From an uncultured archaeon (GTDB taxonomy: Archaea; Asgardarchaeota; Lokiarchaeia; Sigyniarchaeales; SOKP01): a stretch of 64,000 bases of DNA. A program made the translations under genes and the position numbers. Shown piece by piece: positions 1,368-59,834 of this stretch. Where the stretch lies: NCBI GenBank assembly GCA_964493715.1, contig CAZBPC010000002.1:1-64000 (forward strand), in the 5' to 3' direction. Position 1 is the first letter of the stretch. Each line of letters opens with the position of its first letter. A model generated the notes under the pieces. That model saw only the letters and a list, made by a program, of their open reading frames with translations, was not told the DNA's origin and searched no databases.

Positions 1368-4300
1368 TAATTTTTGTTGTTTTATTTTTGGATTATTAGT
1401 TAAACTTTCCACGTATTGTTCAATTAATTCCATTCTTTGAACGGTATAGTGATCCAGATTGAATTCTTTGCAAAGTTTTTGAGCTCTAGGAACATATTTT
1501 TCTATACCTCCACTATTTACCGTTAAAATCACTTTTTTACCACATTTTGGACATTTACCATTATTAGATATTGGAACACGTCGAAATTTTTCATTACATT
1601 TAACACATCTGAACTCTTGAACTGAAAATTTGCGTAAATTCCCAAGTATATCTGGATTGAAATGTGTAGAAAGAATTTTTTCAGCAACCTTCTTTGCATC
1701 AACCGCTTTGATAATTTTCGCAATATGTAATTGAGCTTCAATCTTTTCTTCCATATTTTCATGGGTTTTATATGCTGTCATTAATGGCCCCTCATTAATA
1801 TCATCCGTGGGTATATTAAATCCGATATCTTCATATTGCTTTTCTGTGCCTAATCGAGTTTTCACTAAATTCATAATGTCTTCAACTTTTTGTGGTGACG
1901 CAAAATTTTGAGTTGCTTCATAGAATTCTAAAGGATACCGGTACAATGTATCGATGTTATGTGCTTCTCCATCAATTTCATTAGGATCTAACTTAGTAGA
2001 AATAACTAAAGTAGCATCCATTCTCCCCCCAATTTTACTTGGTAGATAATATCTGGAAAAATTTAATAATGGATCTAGTAAAAGCATAATACCATCTTCA
2101 TCGCCATCACAATTACGCCGCTTAGCAGCATGCCAATACGGATGAGCATAAATAGATCTTGCGGGGGAAGTGCCAATTATTCTACCGATGATACCCGCAC
2201 TAGTGTGAGGTGCTAAACCAACAACTAAGTGACCAATTAAATCATCTATACCAGATACATTATAAAATCGTTTCAATTGATAAAAACTTTCAAGCTCATC
2301 ATCTAAAAATTTCGCAAGCCGTAAAAAATAATTGGCACAATCTTCAGATAAGAGAACATCTTGTACTTTTAATTCTATAATTTGATCAGTTTCTACTATT
2401 GGGTTGCCTTGATAATCATATTCATATCCTAAATCCTTCAGTTTTTTGATAGATGTGCCAATCTCTTTAGGTTTAAAATGGGTTAATGGTATATCAGTAG
2501 CATCATAACGTATCTCTGCAGTTTTGTATACTAATAATCCATTCTTTGCTCTTAATATACCTTTCTCAATAGGTTCAGGAAGTTTAAATTGATTGGTTAA
2601 GCCAAAAATTGCTTTAAATTTTTTAGGTAGAGTTAATCCTAATGATGTAAGAGCAGAATTGATATAATTTTTAAAATTAAGAGAAGCTTCATTTGAGAAG
2701 CTTAATATTTGACCGCACTGAGAGCATTTATCCATGTCCTTAGAATATGTTTTTTTACATTTAACACAGATCTTTTGTACTTCTGTATGACTTCCACATA
2801 ATGGACATTTATTGAAAAGAGATACATTATGACAATTAGGACATTTTTTTCTACCTGCGTCAATTTTAATTACTCCAAGCTCTATAGCTTTTTCAACTAA
2901 TCGTTGATTTCCCACCTTATCACTTAATGGAAACAATGAATGAACACCTTTCATGGATTTTCGTTCAGATTTTTCTGGTCGTCCCATTCTAGTTCCCATA
3001 TAATAAGGAGCTTTATTCCTTATTTCAAGTCCAGATCTAAGTTTAAAATAAGAAAAACTGTCACTAATGCCTTCCAAAGATATATTATTTGAATTTAAAA
3101 GATCGAAAATTGATTGAAAAATATAGTTCTTAGCTTTGCTGAATTCTATAATTCCATCTTTAACCAAATGGACTACAAAAGCCTTTTCTAAAATTTCTTT
3201 CACTTTGGGGTCGTTCTTCAAATAAATTTTCTTTTCTGATCTATTAAAGCCTTCATTCATAGCTATTCGAAGTACTTCTAGTTCAGATACAGATAGATTT
3301 CCCCAATAATCGGTATAAAAGGGATGTAGTGGAATTTTTAAACTATTCGCTAATTTAATAGCATCCTCTGCTGAAGGAACATTATAAAACGGGTCTTTTA
3401 TGAAACTTTTGAGTTTTGGTGGTGTTTCTCCTGCTTTTTGCAGAGCATTTTCTAATTCTAGCGCCCACCATTCTTCAACATAACCTGACGGGACTAATTT
3501 ATGGTTATTTTCGGCGAATTCTCCAAAACCAAACAAAATATCACCTAAAAATAGTATGCTTTCAACTTCTGGAAAAATACGCTTTGCTTTTTCCTTAGTT
3601 TTAACCTTAATAACGCTTCCATCCTTTAACTTTACTATTGGAGGCTCAATTGAGTTTACAGGACAAACACTTGCACTTTTACCAGGACGCTCTATTCTTA
3701 GTTGAGTACCAATTGCAATAAAATTATCCAATAGTGTCATAGTCGCCGGATGTATGCCCGCAGCCGCAAGACCAGTGTTTCTAGACCTACCATACCGAAT
3801 TCGATGACCTCCGATGCGTGAGGGATGACTGAAAACGGGTCTTCCTGCTATGATATCTGAAACATATTTTGAATTTGGTGATATTTTTTTTTTATTGATA
3901 ATATCCTCTTTTTCCGAATTTTCCGTTTTTTGAGATATATTCTTTAATGATTTTAACCATTCCCAACCTTTTAGATTCATACTTGCTGCAATCTTCATTA
4001 ATTTCGGTGCTTTAAGAAGTATACCATCATTTAATACTAAACAAGCACCTCCTCGAATTTTATTAGTATCAACCCGTGGAAGATCCCGAAAGGCAGAAAC
4101 CTCTTCATCTTCAGTTGAATCTCCATTAATTTCAATTGGTAAATGCTCAACAGCAAATCTTATTTCATCATTTGAAGAAGGATATTGAAGATGGACTCTA
4201 CGATCATATAATTTAACTTCTTCAACATATCGTCCAATTTCAGCTTCAGTAGCCTCATACTTAGGAATATTTGACTTTTCTCGTACATAATCCGCAATAA

Positions 4301-5048: not shown

Positions 5049-6803
5049 TTGAATCACGAGTATCTTTCCCATAAGAAGGTATTAATAAATAGATTAGCGA
5101 ATTCGGGTATAAATATTTCTCCCAAATCTATCGAAGTCATCATGAAACTTGAAAATCCTCTAATTAAAACCGATATCATTATACAAGAAATGAATACCAT
5201 CCCCACTTTTAATGGACATCTTACTTTAAATGTAATGCAAAAAATATCTAATGAAGAAATCCAAAGGGTGTTAAAAAGAGAGAATCTGATAATAAGCAAT
5301 GATGAAAAAACTACCTATAATGAAAATAACTTAGAGAGCAATCGAATAGACATTCCTTCTTCAATTAAAAGTGAATATGCGAATTCTATAGAAACTCAAA
5401 ATCTTATTAATACTCCTCAGCCAAAAAAACCTGAACTAATAGTTATTAACCCTCTTCCTGCAAAAAAACAACAACCAAAAATTAAACAATTTGATTCCGT
5501 AAAATCTTCAATTTCATTTAATCCTATAGCGAAAAATTATGAATTTGAATATAATATTTTAAAGGATCCAAATGGTAAACTCTTCACAAATGGATCCTTC
5601 GAAGATTTCTATGAGATGACTGTGGATAAATACAATTCATTGCGTAATTTAATGAGAAATCGAGCTGAAGTGCTCTCATCAACAAATATTGAAAAGATAA
5701 TTAGATTATCTAACAATGCTGAAGTATCTACAATGGGGTTGATCAATAGTATACGATTAACAAAAAACAAAAATTATCTTTTATCATTAGAAGATTTAAC
5801 GGGAGAAATCTCCGTATTAATTAATAAAAATGATGAAGATCTCAATGAAATGAAAAGAGCTGAACGGCTCATCAATGATCAAATGATATATGTGGAAGGT
5901 ATATATAATCCAAGTAATACTAAAGGCAAAGGAATTATCTTTGCAAATAAATTCACGAAGATAGATATTCCTACTAATTTCCAACCTAATAATTCAACTG
6001 AACCTCTTGCTATTGCATTAATTTCCGATACTCATATCGGAAGTAAAGAGTTTGAAGAACCATTATTTAATAAATTTATCCAATTCTTGAAAGGCAAAGT
6101 TGGTGATAATAAGGTAAGAAAATTAGCTGGAAAAATTAAATATTTGATAATAAACGGAGATCTAATTGATGGAATTGGGGTTTATCCAAATCAGAATGAA
6201 GATCTCATCATATCAGATATTTATAAACAATACGATAAGGCTACAGAATTTATCAAGGAGATCCCCGAATATATTAAAATTTTTTATGTATCGGGTAATC
6301 ATGAACCCGTGAGAAATGCTATTGCGAGACCCGCTGTTCCTAAAAAATATTGTAAAGGATTAGTAGATTTAGGAGTTAAGTGTTTAGGTAATCCTTCTCT
6401 AATAAGTACCCATAGTGTTAAAACCCTTATATTTCATGGGGAAAGCATGCACGATTTAAATATGGCCGTTCCAGATTTGGATATAAACAATCCAACTGAA
6501 ACAATGAAAGAATTGCTTATTTGCAGACATCTCGCCCCTACATATGGTGGAAAGACTCAAATTGCACCCACAAACAAGGATTGGCTCGTAATCGACACGA
6601 TTCCCGATATATTTCATACCGGTCATCTACATATCAATGGATTTAATCGTTATCGAAATGTTAACTTAATCAATTCAGGATGCTTTCAAGCACAAACAGA
6701 TTTTATGAGAAGTTTTGGTATAGATCCAACAATAGGAATAGTACCAGTTATTGAATTAGATTCCTTAAAAACAAGTATATTAGATTTTAAAAAGCAGCTT
6801 TAA
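5049..6803 (+). CDS. polB: DNA polymerase D small subunit DP1 (proofreading exonuclease)
   Basis: OB fold (LEDLTG) plus calcineurin-like motifs SDTHIGS, GDLIDG, GNHE, HTGHLH; divergent from DP2. Confidence 0.95.
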   Translation: MNHEYLSHKKVLINRLANSGINISPKSIEVIMKLENPLIKTDIIIQEMNTIPTFNGHLTLNVMQKISNEEIQRVLKRENLIISNDEKTTYNENNLESNRIDIPSSIKSEYANSIETQNLINTPQPKKPELIVINPLPAKKQQPKIKQFDSVKSSISFNPIAKNYEFEYNILKDPNGKLFTNGSFEDFYEMTVDKYNSLRNLMRNRAEVLSSTNIEKIIRLSNNAEVSTMGLINSIRLTKNKNYLLSLEDLTGEISVLINKNDEDLNEMKRAERLINDQMIYVEGIYNPSNTKGKGIIFANKFTKIDIPTNFQPNNSTEPLAIALISDTHIGSKEFEEPLFNKFIQFLKGKVGDNKVRKLAGKIKYLIINGDLIDGIGVYPNQNEDLIISDIYKQYDKATEFIKEIPEYIKIFYVSGNHEPVRNAIARPAVPKKYCKGLVDLGVKCLGNPSLISTHSVKTLIFHGESMHDLNMAVPDLDINNPTETMKELLICRHLAPTYGGKTQIAPTNKDWLVIDTIPDIFHTGHLHINGFNRYRNVNLINSGCFQAQTDFMRSFGIDPTIGIVPVIELDSLKTSILDFKKQL

Positions 6804-10408: not shown

Positions 10409-10510
10409 GTATAAATAATTTTTTCAACAATCATTTTAAAGTCCTCTAAGAAAAAAATATACAATATGAGTTACTTTTTTAATTCAGAATCAATTTTATA
10501 AATTTATAAC

Positions 10511-10963
10511 GTGAATGAAAAGAAAGTGAAAATTCCCGGATTTGAATACATAGATCACACCGCAGATGTTCAAGCTCGTTGCTACGGACGTACTCTCGAA
10601 CAAGCATTTGAACAAACTGCCTATGCAGTTATGAAAACAATCTCACCTAATTTGGAGAAAATCCTCCCAATAGAGAAAAAAGAAATTACAATTAAAGCAG
10701 AAGATAAGCAAGCTTTATTATTTGATTTTTTATCTGAATTTTTATACATCTTTGATGTTGAAGGGTTAATATTTTCCCAAATAATCGTTGAGAAAATTAA
10801 AAAAAGGGGGGATGAATTTACCTTAATCGCGAATGCCAGCGGAGAGAAATTTAATAATTTACGTCATGAAATCGGGATAGAAGTGAAAGCAATCACGTAT
10901 TCATACATGAATATTGAAGAAAAAAGTGATAAAACCATAATCGATATTGTTTTTGATATATGA
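10511..10963 (+). CDS. Archease (RtcB cofactor)
   Basis: FEYIDHTADV, EVKAITY, C-terminal VFDI; convergent with and abutting rtcB. Confidence 0.95.
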   Translation: MNEKKVKIPGFEYIDHTADVQARCYGRTLEQAFEQTAYAVMKTISPNLEKILPIEKKEITIKAEDKQALLFDFLSEFLYIFDVEGLIFSQIIVEKIKKRGDEFTLIANASGEKFNNLRHEIGIEVKAITYSYMNIEEKSDKTIIDIVFDI

Positions 10964-12471
10964 TTATCCCTTAACAACTCCTACTGGCACTAAACGTACG
11001 ATCTTTTCAATAATTCCAAGATCGTGGCTAACTTGAACTACTTGATCAATATCTTTATAAGCTCCTGGAGCTTCTTCAGCAACTACTTCATTCGAAGCAG
11101 CTCTTATCGAAATCCCTTGATTTTTAAGGCTATCTGTCAATTGTCGAATATTAGGAAGGTACTTTCGTTTTGCTTTAGATCTAGACATCACTCGACCTGA
11201 ACCGTGTGCTGTTGAACCAAATGAGAGATCCATAGCTTTTGGTCTTCCAACACAAAGATATGAAGCTGAACCCATGGTACCTGGAATCAACGCTGGTTGT
11301 CCAATACTTTTATAATCCTGTGACAATTCTGGATGACCTGGAGGAAAAGCTCGCGTAGCTCCTTTTCTATGTACATTTAATAAGATCTTTTTACCATCCA
11401 CTTCGTGTTCTTCTATTTTAAGGATATTATGAGCAACGCCATATATCAGCGTGAAATCTAATTCCTCAGCACTCTGTTTAAAATGTGATTGAAATGATTC
11501 TCTTAACCAATGAGTAATTAATTGCCTATTATTAAATCCAAAATTCGCAGCACAAGCCATTTGACTTAGATACATATCTGCTTCTGGTGTATTTGCAGGC
11601 ACACAAGCGAGCTCTCTATCGGGAACCTCAATCTTGTATTTTTTCATGGCTTGTTCTATAGCTCTCAACGAATCAGTACATATTTGATGACCTAAAGCTC
11701 TTGAACCTGTATGAACCATCACTGTGACTTGATTTTCTTGAAGAATTCCTAATTTCTTTGCTATATCTCTATTGAAAATTTTATCTACTTTTTGTATTTC
11801 TAAAAAATGGTTTCCACTTCCTAAAGAACCGAGTTGTTTTATACCTCTTTGCTTTGCTTTCTGTGAAACTAATTCTGCATTTGCATTTTTTAAAAAACCA
11901 TTCTCCTCACAGTGTTTTATATCTTCTTTCAAGGCATAGCCATTATCAAGTGCCCAGTTTAATCCATTATTTAGAACATCATCTAAATCTGAGAAATTTA
12001 TGTTTAATTTTCCTTTTGACCCTAATCCTGAAGGAATATTCTTGAATATTGTGTCTAATAAAGTTGGAATTTTTTTTTGAACATCTTTCATCATTAAATT
12101 CGTTCGTAGTAATCTTACACCACAGTTAATATCGTCTTTGGCATAAAAGCCTATGCTCTTATGTATCCAACGCCGCCAGGCGAAATCATACCATCTGTGG
12201 CATCCGTTCCTGCAACTCCTCCAATACAAAAACCGTATCCTTGATGAGCATCAGATAATGCGATTGCATGTTTTTGAATGCCCGGCAAACAAGCAACATT
12301 ACTTATCTGATCAAGAGTTCTATCTTGTTTAATCTTTTCCATGATATATTCATTGGCGTAAATATGTACTGGGACTTTCATTTCAAATTTTTTAATTGTC
12401 CCCTCAACTCGTGCCATCAAAGTTTGCGGTTCGATCTCATAAATATTTTCAGCAATTTTTTTTACATTCAT
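10964..12471 (-). CDS. rtcB: RNA-splicing ligase RtcB, two exons (12471-12165, 12135-10964); 492 aa after splicing
   Basis: Exon 1 has [13 protein letters not shown]...SPGGVGY; exon 2 has [39 protein letters not shown]; removing 29 nt joins them in frame. Confidence 0.93.
12136..12164 (-). other. 29-nt BHB-type intron in rtcB mRNA
   Basis: CG-TTGG-AT^A-CATAAGAG-catagg-CTTTTATG-CCAA-AG^A-CG: 4-bp helix TTGG/CCAA, two 3-nt bulges, 8-bp intron stem; canonical cuts give GGA TAC GAT ATT AAC TGT. Confidence 0.88.
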
Positions 12472-12641
12472 TATCTTCAATAATTCTACATTTATCAAAA
12501 ATTTAATTGAAAATTGAATAAATTCATTATAAAAACTTATTTATAAGGATGTTTAAATTTTTTGATTATTGAAAAAAAATTAAGATTTTAAGTAATAGCT
12601 TAATTATGGCAAGGATTAATGTACTGTGGTAAAAATCTCTT

Positions 12642-41600: not shown

Positions 41601-42605
41601 ATGGATGATATTCTTGAAAAAATAAATTTCATTTTGAAAAAAGCTAATTTTGAAACATTTTTACTTAATAATTTCTATGAAAAAAAGAATAAATTTTGTT
41701 TTGATCTGTTAGCAAAAAAGCAAGGAACTATTTTTAGTGTTAAAATATTTTCAAATATTGATAATCTTAATAAAGACTTAGTAAATGATATTAAATCACT
41801 GTCAATCTTGCTTAAATCAAAACCTTTACTGATAGGTCTTAGAAATAGATACCAAAACTTAGAGGATAATGCTCTATATATGCGATATGGATTGCCTTTT
41901 ATTTCGATTAATACATTTGAAAAAATTATAGAAAATGACGAATATCCATACATATTAGCTAGGAGAGGAGGTGGCATTATTTTCTTGGATGGGCAACTTA
42001 TGAAATTAAAAAGAGAATCTGAAGCAATCTCACGAAAGGAGCTTTCAGAGAAATTGGGTGTTACGAAAAGAACAGTTTGTGCCTATGAAAATGATAGTAT
42101 GCGGCCTTCAGAGAGTATTGCTTTAAAAATTCTTGAATTATTACATGATAATATGATCCTAAAGAGAATGAATCCATTTGGCTGGAAGATAAAATTTGAC
42201 TTTAAAGAAACCTCTATTAGTGAAGAAAAAGATTTAAACCCTTTTGAAACTCATATACATGACGTCATTGAGGATATTGGAATGTCAACATATTGGTATA
42301 GTAAAGGACCCATCCCTTTCAAATTTTCTATTTATTCCCCTTCTGAACCCCAGGTTAATGTTTATCCAATCTTTTCAGGGATCTCTGAAGAACAAAAAAA
42401 AATATCAGAAACTAATTTAAAATGCTTGAAAATATTCACAAATTTATTTCAGAAAAAAAGTCTATTAATTGTAACCAACGAAATTAAAGTAACCGATACT
42501 ATTAAGCAAAACTTTATTCCAATTGTAAAAATTAAAGACTTAGAAAAAGTAGATAACGAAGATGAATTTATTGAACTCGTCAAAGGAACGACAAACAACA
42601 TCTAA
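41601..42605 (+). CDS. Conserved archaeal HTH transcriptional regulator
   Basis: CFDLLAKK, KIFSNID, ARRGG, central HTH ELSEKLGVTKRTVCAYE. Confidence 0.85.
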   Translation: MDDILEKINFILKKANFETFLLNNFYEKKNKFCFDLLAKKQGTIFSVKIFSNIDNLNKDLVNDIKSLSILLKSKPLLIGLRNRYQNLEDNALYMRYGLPFISINTFEKIIENDEYPYILARRGGGIIFLDGQLMKLKRESEAISRKELSEKLGVTKRTVCAYENDSMRPSESIALKILELLHDNMILKRMNPFGWKIKFDFKETSISEEKDLNPFETHIHDVIEDIGMSTYWYSKGPIPFKFSIYSPSEPQVNVYPIFSGISEEQKKISETNLKCLKIFTNLFQKKSLLIVTNEIKVTDTIKQNFIPIVKIKDLEKVDNEDEFIELVKGTTNNI

Positions 42606-43296
42606 ATTGATTTGTGGATTAGATGAGGCTGGCAGAATATAATTCGTATCGAATGATATGTTAACAGGACCTGTTCTAGGCCCAATGGTTATTTGTGGTG
42701 TTTGTTTCCTCGAAGAAAATATCCAATCTCTAGAAACTTTAGGAGTGAAAGATTCAAAAAAACTAACTATAAGAAAAAGAACCGAATTATCCGCAATATT
42801 AAAATCAATTTGCTTTTCTTATCAAAATGTTATAATTTCTCCTCAAGAAATTGATGAGAGGATTTCATTGAGAATTTCATTAAACCGACTTGAAGAATTA
42901 AAAATGGCCCAAATACTGAATCATCTAAAGCCAGAGTTAGTATATATAGATGCCGCTGATGTGAGAGAAGAGCGATTTGGACGGTCTATAGCTAAATTAT
43001 TAAATTATTCACCAAAAAAAATCATTTCCAAACATAAAGCTGATGATCTTTACCCAATAGTTTCAGCTAGCTCAATTATTGCTAAAGATATGAGAGATAG
43101 ACTCATTGAAGAACTAAAAAAAAATTATGGAGATTTTGGTTCAGGATATCCCTCAGACGAACGTAGTACGACATTTCTTCGAAAGTGGATAATAGATAAT
43201 AAGAAAGCTCCACCTATTGCAAGAAAATCATGGGAAACTACGAAAAAAATAATAAGAGAAGAAATATTTAATAAGAAGATTACTGATTATGTATAG
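42562..43296 (+). CDS. rnhB: Ribonuclease HII, two exons (42562 or 42607 to 42635, and 42666-43296)
   Basis: Exon 1 ICGLDEAG(R); exon 2 GPVLGPMV, VKDSKKL, YIDAAD, HKADD, SIIAK, GSGYPSD; 30-nt insert carries an in-frame TAA. Confidence 0.92.
42636..42665 (+). other. 30-nt BHB-type intron in rnhB mRNA
   Basis: C-TGGC-AG^A-ATATaATTCG-tat-CGAATgATAT-GTTA-AC^A-G: 4-bp helix TGGC/GTTA (2 G-U), 3-nt bulges AGA/ACA; canonical cuts give GCT GGC AGA GGA CCT. Confidence 0.82.
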
Positions 43297-59588: not shown

Positions 59589-59695
59589 TGGCGGGCTATG
59601 AGGGAATTTCGCAATCATCCTATTCGGACGAATCTATCGAACCCCCGACCCCCCGGTTAAGAGCCGGATGCGCTACCTAGCTGCGCCAATAGCCC
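59589..59695 (-). tRNA. tRNA-Lys(CTT) with 30-nt intron in the T-loop (59606-59635); CCA genome-encoded
   Basis: GGGCTAT/ATAGCCC-G-CCA acceptor; CCGG-CT-CTT-AA-CCGG; TTCG/CGAA helix with 3-nt bulges restores the TTCGATT loop. Confidence 0.93.
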
Positions 59696-59733: not shown

Positions 59734-59834
59734 CGCAGACGGAGGGATTCGAACCCCCGAGCGCTCACGCGCACCGGTTTACTCGAATATGAAAACACTC
59801 AAGACCGGCGTCTTACCAACTAGGCTACGTCTGC
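59734..59834 (-). tRNA. tRNA-Ser(TGA) with 18-nt canonical 37/38 intron (59780-59797)
   Basis: GCAGACG/CGTCTGC-G acceptor; CCGGT-CT-TGA; long variable arm GCGC-gtga-GCGC; helix CTTG/CGAG. Confidence 0.93.

Follow-up and report, generated by a model that had tools for sequence, protein, structure and literature searches.

A predicted bulge-helix-bulge intron within the active-site motif of RNase HII in an Asgard archaeon

In the canonical hBHBh' form of the archaeal bulge-helix-bulge (BHB) motif, the 5' strand of a 4-bp helix belongs to the exon and the 3' strand to the intron, a bulge follows each strand, and the rule that the cut falls after the second base of each bulge was deduced from tRNA 37/38 geometry. 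An intron of this type is said to have been described by Watanabe in 2002 in the cbf5 pre-mRNA of Crenarchaeota. According to the available sections of Yokobori 2009 (PMC2738675), the motif of the cbf5 BHB introns is often relaxed and their distribution patchy, with gain and loss, and the accessible part of a 2020 paper (PMC7714728) names cbf5 as the only reported mRNA case besides an intron in the 5' untranslated region of HVO_1309. Here we analysed the first 64,000 nucleotides (nt) of contig CAZBPC010000002.1 (the window; GenBank assembly GCA_964493715.1) from an uncultured archaeon of the Sigyniarchaeales (Asgardarchaeota; Lokiarchaeia), and conclude that 30 nt within it are very probably a BHB (tRNA-type) intron in the mRNA of rnhB, the gene for RNase HII, which would be removed by the splicing endonuclease EndA and the RNA ligase RtcB.

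One parallel is offered by HAC1/XBP1, where a short intron of a cytoplasmic mRNA is cut by an endonuclease that leaves a cyclic phosphate, a tRNA ligase (in animals, RtcB) joins the exons, and stress regulation of the splicing is established. That system shares with rnhB a short mRNA intron whose removal changes the reading frame, but there IRE1 cuts twin stem-loops, not a tRNA-splicing endonuclease a BHB. The cbf5 case, to judge from the text available of PMC2738675, likewise has a BHB intron of tRNA-intron size within the coding sequence of an archaeon with a hetero-oligomeric EndA, a relaxed motif, and patchy gain and loss among relatives. It differs in that the host gene here is rnhB and the host a member of the Asgard archaea (Promethearchaeota) instead of the Thermoproteota, that the rnhB intron splits a catalytic motif, and that at least six more inserts occur in other protein genes of the genus. 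HVO_1309 of Haloferax volcanii, as presented in the accessible part of PMC7714728, also has an EndA-processed BHB in an mRNA (the processing here is predicted), but its intron lies in an untranslated leader, whereas that of rnhB lies within active-site codons. The tRNA BHB introns of Asgard archaea, as far as the available text of two reports goes (PMC11291895; bioRxiv 10.64898/2026.10.13.758758), resemble the rnhB intron in predicted machinery, motif and size range, and in repeated lineage-specific gain, which we see in rtcB, nadE, cdhD and a dnaG-like gene of the present genome (G000) and not in its congener G022; in rnhB the host is an mRNA, in which the cuts must also preserve the reading frame. 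The available text of bioRxiv 10.64898/2026.10.13.758758 does not contain 'mRNA', 'cbf5' or 'RNase H' (its supplements may list non-tRNA introns), and in the full texts searched, supplements aside, we found BHB introns described neither for rnhB or rtcB nor for any other Asgard protein gene. By the literature searched, rnhB is the second gene family with a coding-sequence BHB intron in archaea.

From the TTG at 42607 (+), the reading LICGLDEAGR (TTG ATT TGT GGA TTA GAT GAG GCT GGC AGA) is followed by I and then by a TAA at 42640-42642; it is in frame with the open reading frame (ORF) that starts at ATG 42658 and ends at 43296, and past the TAA the frame continues as ...MLTGPVLGPMVIC... to its stop at 43294-43296. 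Taken alone, the ATG-ORF matches Pfam RNase_HII PF01351 (2.8e-40, 138.8 bits) only from profile position 8 of 199, and solved RNase HII chains in the PDB align to the same exon from GP onwards, starting at their residue 12 (2.5e-49). When the frame is read through the single TAA, profile positions 1-199 are all covered at C2:42613-43242 ('1 TAA' inside), the DEAGRGP N-terminus included; the ATG-ORF also scores 195.9 bits (7.8e-58) against TIGR00729, whose cut-off is 123.3. The Asp and Glu of DEAGRGP are catalytic residues of RNase HII. A preliminary description of this DNA had proposed that a 30-nt insert with an in-frame TAA splits DEAGR|GP, and the insert is present letter for letter at 42636-42665, as are all the pairings claimed for it: UGGC with GUUA, AGA and ACA as bulges, an intron stem, and a weaker outer helix of C-G plus AGG/CCU.

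Read 5' to 3', the elements follow one another as AGGC, UGGC, AGA, a 23-nt hairpin, GUUA, ACA, G (42667), GA and CCU (Table 1). The central UGGC/GUUA pairs are U-A, G-U, G-U and C-G, and both flanking helices of a BHB are found: the intron hairpin (h') has nine pairs, and the outer exon-exon helix (h) is reduced to C-G plus three pairs, with a 2-nt interruption between the C-G pair and AGG/CCU. If each bulge is cut behind its second base, exactly the 30 nt are removed and GGC AG|A GGA (G-R-G) is left. The rnhB BHB is a relaxed form, akin to many cbf5 and crenarchaeal cases in the sections available of PMC2738675. An in-frame ATG at 42562, 15 codons upstream of TTG 42607, is an alternative start of rnhB; a start there would make rnhB run into the HTH_3 gene upstream (41601-42605) at that gene's 3' end, and the overlap region is conserved in relatives.

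Could rnhB simply be dead or dying, either as a pseudogene disabled by an insertion or because only a truncated product from ATG 42658 is made? Such a reading would account for the in-frame TAA, and ORF callers would indeed list just a 212-aa ORF from that ATG, but it is very improbable in light of the state of the gene. A search of the whole genome (3.68 Mb in 160 contigs, ~30% G+C, rated 100% complete) with PF01351 gave a single match, making this its only RNase HII. The ratio of nonsynonymous to synonymous substitution rates (dN/dS) of exon 2 was 0.15-0.27 for intron-bearing pairs and 0.06-0.22 for intronless pairs, which speaks against pseudogenization elsewhere in rnhB, an outcome that the preliminary description had named as refuting its reading, and the DEAG codons upstream of the junction were kept in 87 of 87 fetched family rows. 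Across 8 genera, 81 genomes share the insert at a single conserved site. The internal ATG, on the other hand, is not conserved (ACG in G007; no ATG in ACCA-type introns), and a product starting there would be without the Asp and Glu of DEAGRGP.

The distribution of the insert was determined by a search of the family, in which 133 genomes of 13 genera gave a match in 125 and a readable junction in 124 (a partial match, G041, was excluded from the count, and G141 was counted as insert-bearing although Ns follow its junction). At the same site, where the codons for Arg and Gly of DEAGRGP meet, 81 of the 124 carry an insert of 28-31 nt, and the remaining 43 have an uninterrupted DEAGRG, so that the comparison of orthologs for intron presence or absence suggested in the preliminary description does find both states. 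By genus, the insert is present in 50/51 genomes of g22, 13/38 of g1, 5/5 of g15, 4/4 of g16, 4/7 of g23, 3/8 of g21, 1/2 of g17 and 1/1 of g13, and in 0/4 of g12 and 0/1 each of g14, g18, g19 and g20; within the archaeon's own genus, 13 of 38 orthologs have a 30-nt insert and 25 an intact DEAGRGP. Most inserts are 30 nt long, those of G062 and G119 being 29, that of G146 28 and that of G147 31 nt, and further variants were found on metagenome contigs. The insert was not seen at any of 6 loci read in other families of the order, or at any of 13 loci from Thermoplasmatota and other groups. The genus tree, a maximum-likelihood tree of the protein (quick search, 44 rows), places the insert-bearing genes in four clades, the earliest branch among them, and requires at least four changes of insert state. 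The rnhB intron is old, probably of the same age as the family; most lineages have retained it, and several precise losses have probably taken place. That the insert is excised from the DNA, or is an artefact of assembly, is extremely improbable, and we found no supporting point: the insert is present in the assemblies of many independent projects, DNA contigs of three runs (X4, X5 and X6, salt-marsh metagenomes of one year, the near-identical X4 possibly being the source sample) cross the region with the insert and without indels, there are no terminal repeats, and the anatomy is that of an RNA substrate. Among the contigs of these runs, none was listed as skipping the 30 nt, although contigs cannot demonstrate that such a form is absent.

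Covariation provided additional support for a BHB. The alignment comprised 80 distinct 85-nt rows, each carrying an insert of 30 nt (MAFFT misaligned one of them), in which 89.6% of the cells of the BHB model were paired, compared to 24-45% when the partners were slid by 1-3 columns. The central helix was 93% paired over 80 distinct sequences, compared to 24-49% when slid, and the h' hairpin was paired in 88.5% of cells, with changes on both sides in 8 of its 9 pairs. Ten pairs of the model showed compensatory change on both sides, and the cells changed on both sides numbered 65, against 14.4 ± 3.2 in shuffles. A register-exact pair count was made on 80 distinct sequences that included the 28, 29 and 31 nt variants: the outermost central pair was UA in 58, UG in 4, AU in 4, CG in 3 and unpaired in 10, the second GU in 44, GC in 25 and unpaired in 11, the third GC in 45 and GU in 35, and the inner one UG in 42, CG in 14, GC in 13, UA in 10 and unpaired in 1. 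On the exon side of this helix, the partners are the third bases of the Ala codon and the Gly codon, which are synonymous sites; a synonymous exon site therefore covaries with the 3' end of the intron (GCU with A, GCA with U, GCC with G). The Ala codon is GCT in 65 of 82 intron-bearing but 15 of 46 intronless distinct sequences, and the Gly codon GGA in none of the 82 compared to 19 of the 46; because the sequences are related, we regard this codon bias as support and not as a test.

Evidence from the cut rule and from frame logic points in the same direction. Bulge 1 is AGA in 75 of the 80 sequences, AGU in 3, AAA in 1 and AGG in 1, while bulge 2 is AAA in 58, ACA in 9, AUA in 9 and something else in 4, and yet the BHB cuts yield Arg in 79/80 (AGA 76, AGG 3), extending to the family the earlier claim that canonical cuts restore AGRGP. 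The three sequences with an AGU bulge would encode Ser if cut at codon borders and encode Arg (AG+A) with the BHB cuts. Reading through the insert meets a stop in 80/80 sequences, and with an insert of 28, 29 or 31 nt the sequence beyond it is out of frame unless BHB cuts take the insert out; a translated insert is therefore excluded. Read-through also fits badly with TAA or TAG at varying places and with insert peptides that are not conserved. Translational bypass of the phage T4 gene 60 type would have in its favour the short gap, a stop soon past the take-off region and a hairpin within the gap, but take-off and landing codons differ (AGA versus ACA here, AGA versus AAA in most), so ribosomal hopping fits badly; a Gly-to-Gly hop would delete Arg-Gly, and the covarying helix ties exon 1 to the 3' end of the intron, which a hop would not need. 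We therefore regard bypass or read-through of the insert as highly improbable. Group I and group II introns and inteins were rejected, 28-31 nt being too short for a ribozyme core of hundreds of nt and the inserts having in-frame stops in 80/80, where an intein would have an in-frame protein-splicing domain.

Several observations nevertheless weigh against a BHB intron in rnhB. In the minimum free energy (MFE) fold of the region by RNAfold, the intron hairpin forms but the central helix does not, CUG pairing with CAG instead; the BHB-constrained fold reaches -12.4 kcal/mol compared to -18.8 for the MFE, a gap of 6.4 in G000, and the gap has a median of 5.6 kcal/mol across the 80 sequences, with all four central pairs in the MFE fold of 1/80. 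RNAalifold proposed pairs that do not belong to a BHB (A28-U56 and G29-C55), although the larger alignment of 80 rows supports the BHB pairs over this proposal. The central helix is rich in G-U and mismatched in 10/80 sequences at its outermost and in 11/80 at its second pair. The outer helix, with C-G in 80/80, G-C in 79/80, G-C or G-U in 80/80 and A-U in 44/80, is interrupted by G opposite G in 80/80, and it is barely tested by covariation because its bases are fixed by codons. The covariation score was reached by 0 of 500 shuffles, but shuffles ignore relatedness. One sequence, G003, would receive Lys from the BHB cuts (predicted DEAGKGP). Moreover, a loose BHB motif (four central pairs, four stem pairs and one outer pair, G-U allowed, both strands, lengths 18-100) was counted 152,343 times in the genome compared to 152,491 and 152,254 times in decoys; since it is as common in decoys as in the genome, geometry alone proves nothing. 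Finally, while the anatomy, conservation and covariation of the element, its frame logic, the selection on its exons and the enzyme genes are observations, cleavage and ligation, and with them the fate of the intron, are what we infer.

The loose motif has a frequency of ~2.5e-4 per site and length, so that a match in the single register that restores DEAGRGP is a ~1-in-4000 event, and a DEAGRGP-restoring BHB match is, on the strength of the comparative sequence data added to it, far beyond chance. As a means of discovery the motif fares poorly: combined with an ORF filter it gave 6357 candidates genome-wide compared to 6338 and 6136 in decoys, with no excess, and 18 inside the window compared to 15-17 in decoys, and such a census cannot enumerate mRNA introns. 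The best-looking further window candidate, at 6780 (24 nt), was rejected as an ordinary gene junction that has an ATG of its own, and a calibration on the 12 intron-bearing tRNAs called by ARAGORN was set aside as too noisy, since intron boundaries there are not clear-cut and out of 7 registers the best had been picked.

The genome encodes the enzymes that such an intron would need. Two EndA paralogs, 30% identical, are encoded. The one on contig C5 (C5:~38084) has as its best matches the tRNA-splicing endonuclease chains 3p1z_B, 3ajv_B, 2cv8_A and 2zyz_B (1e-36 to 2.5e-27), which are of crenarchaeal type, whereas the one on contig C58 (C58:~18731) is without the His aligned to GLEHSPF and weakly matches the beta-subunit model NF007085. 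The accessible part of PMC5829648 assigns to Asgard archaea an (alpha-beta)2 EndA with an L1 loop and links it to relaxed BHB recognition, and that of PMC2738675 ties the cbf5 intron to the same EndA type; judged by their sequences, the two paralogs here fit that enzyme. The genes for RtcB and archease both lie inside the window. ARAGORN found only 27 tRNAs in the complete genome, of which 12 have introns, 11-39 nt long, a size range that includes the 30-nt rnhB insert and thereby supports its reading as a BHB intron. Few tRNAs, many with introns, are in line with the heavily interrupted Asgard tRNA genes described in the available text of PMC11291895 and bioRxiv 10.64898/2026.10.13.758758.

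In the mechanism that we propose, the exon-1 end UGGC of the rnhB pre-mRNA would pair with the intron end GUUA to give the 4-bp helix with its two 3-nt bulges, the intron hairpin lying on one side and the short exon-exon helix on the other. A two-subunit EndA, (alpha-beta)2 in type, would cut each bulge behind its second base, RtcB, aided by archease, would join the exons, and the 30-nt intron would be released. The joined mRNA (...GAU GAG GCU GGC AGA GGA CCU...) would encode RNase HII in full, the metal-binding motif DEAGRGP included; translation of the unspliced mRNA would stop two codons into the intron.

The preliminary description had gone further in proposing that repair is 'gated' by splicing. 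The dependence of rnhB on the splicing machinery follows from the intron; regulation does not, and nothing observed supports it. If removal were limiting or conditional, so that the supply of RNase HII was set by the tRNA-splicing machinery, retention of the intron in nearly all g22 genomes and in 8 genera overall would make sense, as would the in-frame stop after the 5' cut in every sequence; the BHB, being a suboptimal fold, would allow conformer competition, and since the rtcB gene of G000 and G001 is itself intron-bearing, a feedback loop is conceivable. We consider such regulation unlikely, however: nothing observed bears on splicing efficiency or conditions, the 43 intronless relatives and the repeated changes of state fit a neutral passenger equally well, and the other introns, in genes as unrelated as nadE, cdhD, the dnaG-like gene and a thiolase gene, argue for insertion wherever a BHB can form and not for a switch dedicated to RNase HII. 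Their occurrence in such different genes is suggestive of passengers, able to persist at any place with a cleavable BHB.

The rnhB insert had been called the second mRNA BHB intron of the window, and this is correct, because the rtcB gene of the same window has a 29-nt BHB insert. Its Pfam match falls into positions 1-46, ending ...PGGVGY, and positions 48-426, beginning DINCGVR in a different frame, and BHB cuts give GGA UAC GAU (G-Y-D), restoring GGVGY|DINCG. Among 29 informative orthologs this insert is confined to G000 and G001, the remaining ones (the next relatives G022 and G006 included) having an uninterrupted GGVGYDINCG, and it therefore looks like a recent gain. No second rtcB was found in the genome, although no search was aimed at other RNA ligases; as the sole rtcB is interrupted, making the ligase would need pre-existing ligase.

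A comparison of 654 kb of the congener G022 with G000 (541,795 bases aligned) revealed five further inserts, three in G000 only and two in G022 only, at each of which BHB cuts reproduce the other genome's protein exactly; introns common to both genomes are invisible in such a pairwise comparison. In nadE (NAD synthase) the insert splits a motif (...KYGD|GGVD) that is uninterrupted in the G022 ortholog (L273), in cdhD, for the delta subunit of carbon monoxide dehydrogenase/acetyl-CoA synthase (CODH/ACS), the central helix consists of four Watson-Crick pairs and the cut product matches the G022 protein (L265), and in the Toprim/DnaG-like gene the cuts give ...DIVGAIFGQ|TEGLL, the same as in G022 (L283). 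The thiolase-like gene of G022 has two inserts with a 16-nt micro-exon (EYPMG) between them, its ortholog in G000 (L263, on C4) being uninterrupted. Besides rnhB, then, six inserts combine BHB geometry with canonical cuts that give the protein of the uninterrupted ortholog (Table 1).

Table 1. Positions of the predicted rnhB intron and its elements, and of other BHB inserts and related genes. Positions without a contig or locus prefix refer to the window.
Feature	Position	Strand	Details
rnhB exon 1	42607..42635	+	LICGLDEAG and bases 1-2 of the Arg codon; nearest start, TTG 42607
Outer (exon-exon) helix h, 5' strand AGGC	42626..42629	+	C42629-G42667; AGG with CCU 42670-42672
Central 4-bp helix, 5' strand UGGC (exon)	42630..42633	+	Partner 42660-42663
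Bulge 1, AGA	42634..42636	+	Predicted 5' cut between 42635 and 42636
Predicted intron, 30 nt	42636..42665	+	In-frame TAA; missing from 25/38 congeneric orthologs
Intron hairpin h', AUAU.AUUCG, loop UAU, CGAAU.AUAU	42637..42659	+	Present in MFE fold
Central helix, 3' strand GUUA (intron)	42660..42663	+	Partner 42630-42633
Bulge 2, ACA	42664..42666	+	Predicted 3' cut between 42665 and 42666
rnhB exon 2	42666..43296	+	Last Arg base and GPVLGP... to TAG 43294-43296; PF01351, TIGR00729, PDB chains
rtcB BHB insert, 29 nt	12136..12164	-	UUGG 12170-12167 / CCAA 12141-12138; bulges AUA, AGA; 8-bp stem
rtcB exons	12165-12540 and 10964-12135	-	Pfam
Archease gene	10502-10963	+	Adjoins rtcB
nadE (NAD synthase) insert, G000	C39:8748-8777	+	30 nt, in-frame TAA; GGUG/CACU; bulges AUA, AAG
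cdhD (CODH/ACS delta) insert, G000	C8:45566-45597	+	32 nt, frame-shifting; CGCA/UGCG; bulges ACA, AUU
Toprim/DnaG-like gene insert, G000	C17:13937-13974	+	38 nt, frame-shifting; GGCC/GGCU; bulges AAA, AAA
Thiolase-like gene insert 1, G022	L247 (G022:C5) 3375-3408		34 nt; ACGU/GCGG
Thiolase-like gene insert 2, G022	L247 3425-3455		31 nt; UGGG/CCCU

The rnhB intron is likely part of a much wider phenomenon. Because the aligned bases held three introns specific to G000 and two specific to G022, besides those of rnhB and rtcB, we lean towards the view that the protein genes of this family harbour a population of BHB mini-introns of 28-38 nt, perhaps tens per genome, with turnover on the timescale of species. 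If so, these archaea, which are closely related to eukaryotes, would be the first prokaryotes in which split protein genes are routinely spliced by a protein enzyme and are no longer a lone curiosity; in the archaea closest to eukaryotes, mRNAs may be served by the tRNA-splicing machinery as a matter of routine, and a census that confirmed the wider pattern would put mRNA BHB introns on a new scale. RNase HII, and in two species RtcB itself, would depend on EndA and RtcB for their own production, to go by the gene sequences. The mini-introns can leave a micro-exon as short as 16 nt, and one of them sits in rtcB, the gene of the splicing ligase. For annotation, pipelines will label such genes as truncated, as frameshifted or as pseudogenes, and metabolic reconstructions from Asgard metagenome-assembled genomes are biased as a result. 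For evolution, presence/absence polymorphism between congeners makes the gain and precise loss of introns in protein genes directly testable.

Two other candidates were rejected, a 31-nt indel on C9, where no cut reproduces the ortholog, and a 30-nt candidate from an automated check of indels against orthologs, which was weak (60% identity). That check missed the double intron of the thiolase-like gene, and in-frame indels without stops were treated as ordinary protein indels. The cbf5 gene of this genome (C34:26762-27709, -) is uninterrupted (TIGR00425 positions 5-319, no stops). A blastn-short search of the genome with the rnhB and rtcB introns detected no copies, only chance matches of 11-17 nt.

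An Rfam scan of the window returned two tRNAs at gathering score and no other family. The Rfam tRNA at 59734-59834 (-) spans 101 nt for a 71-position model (45.9 bits); ARAGORN makes no such call and instead places a tRNA-Lys at 59609-59694. The tRNA at 59734-59834 is probably an intron-bearing gene.

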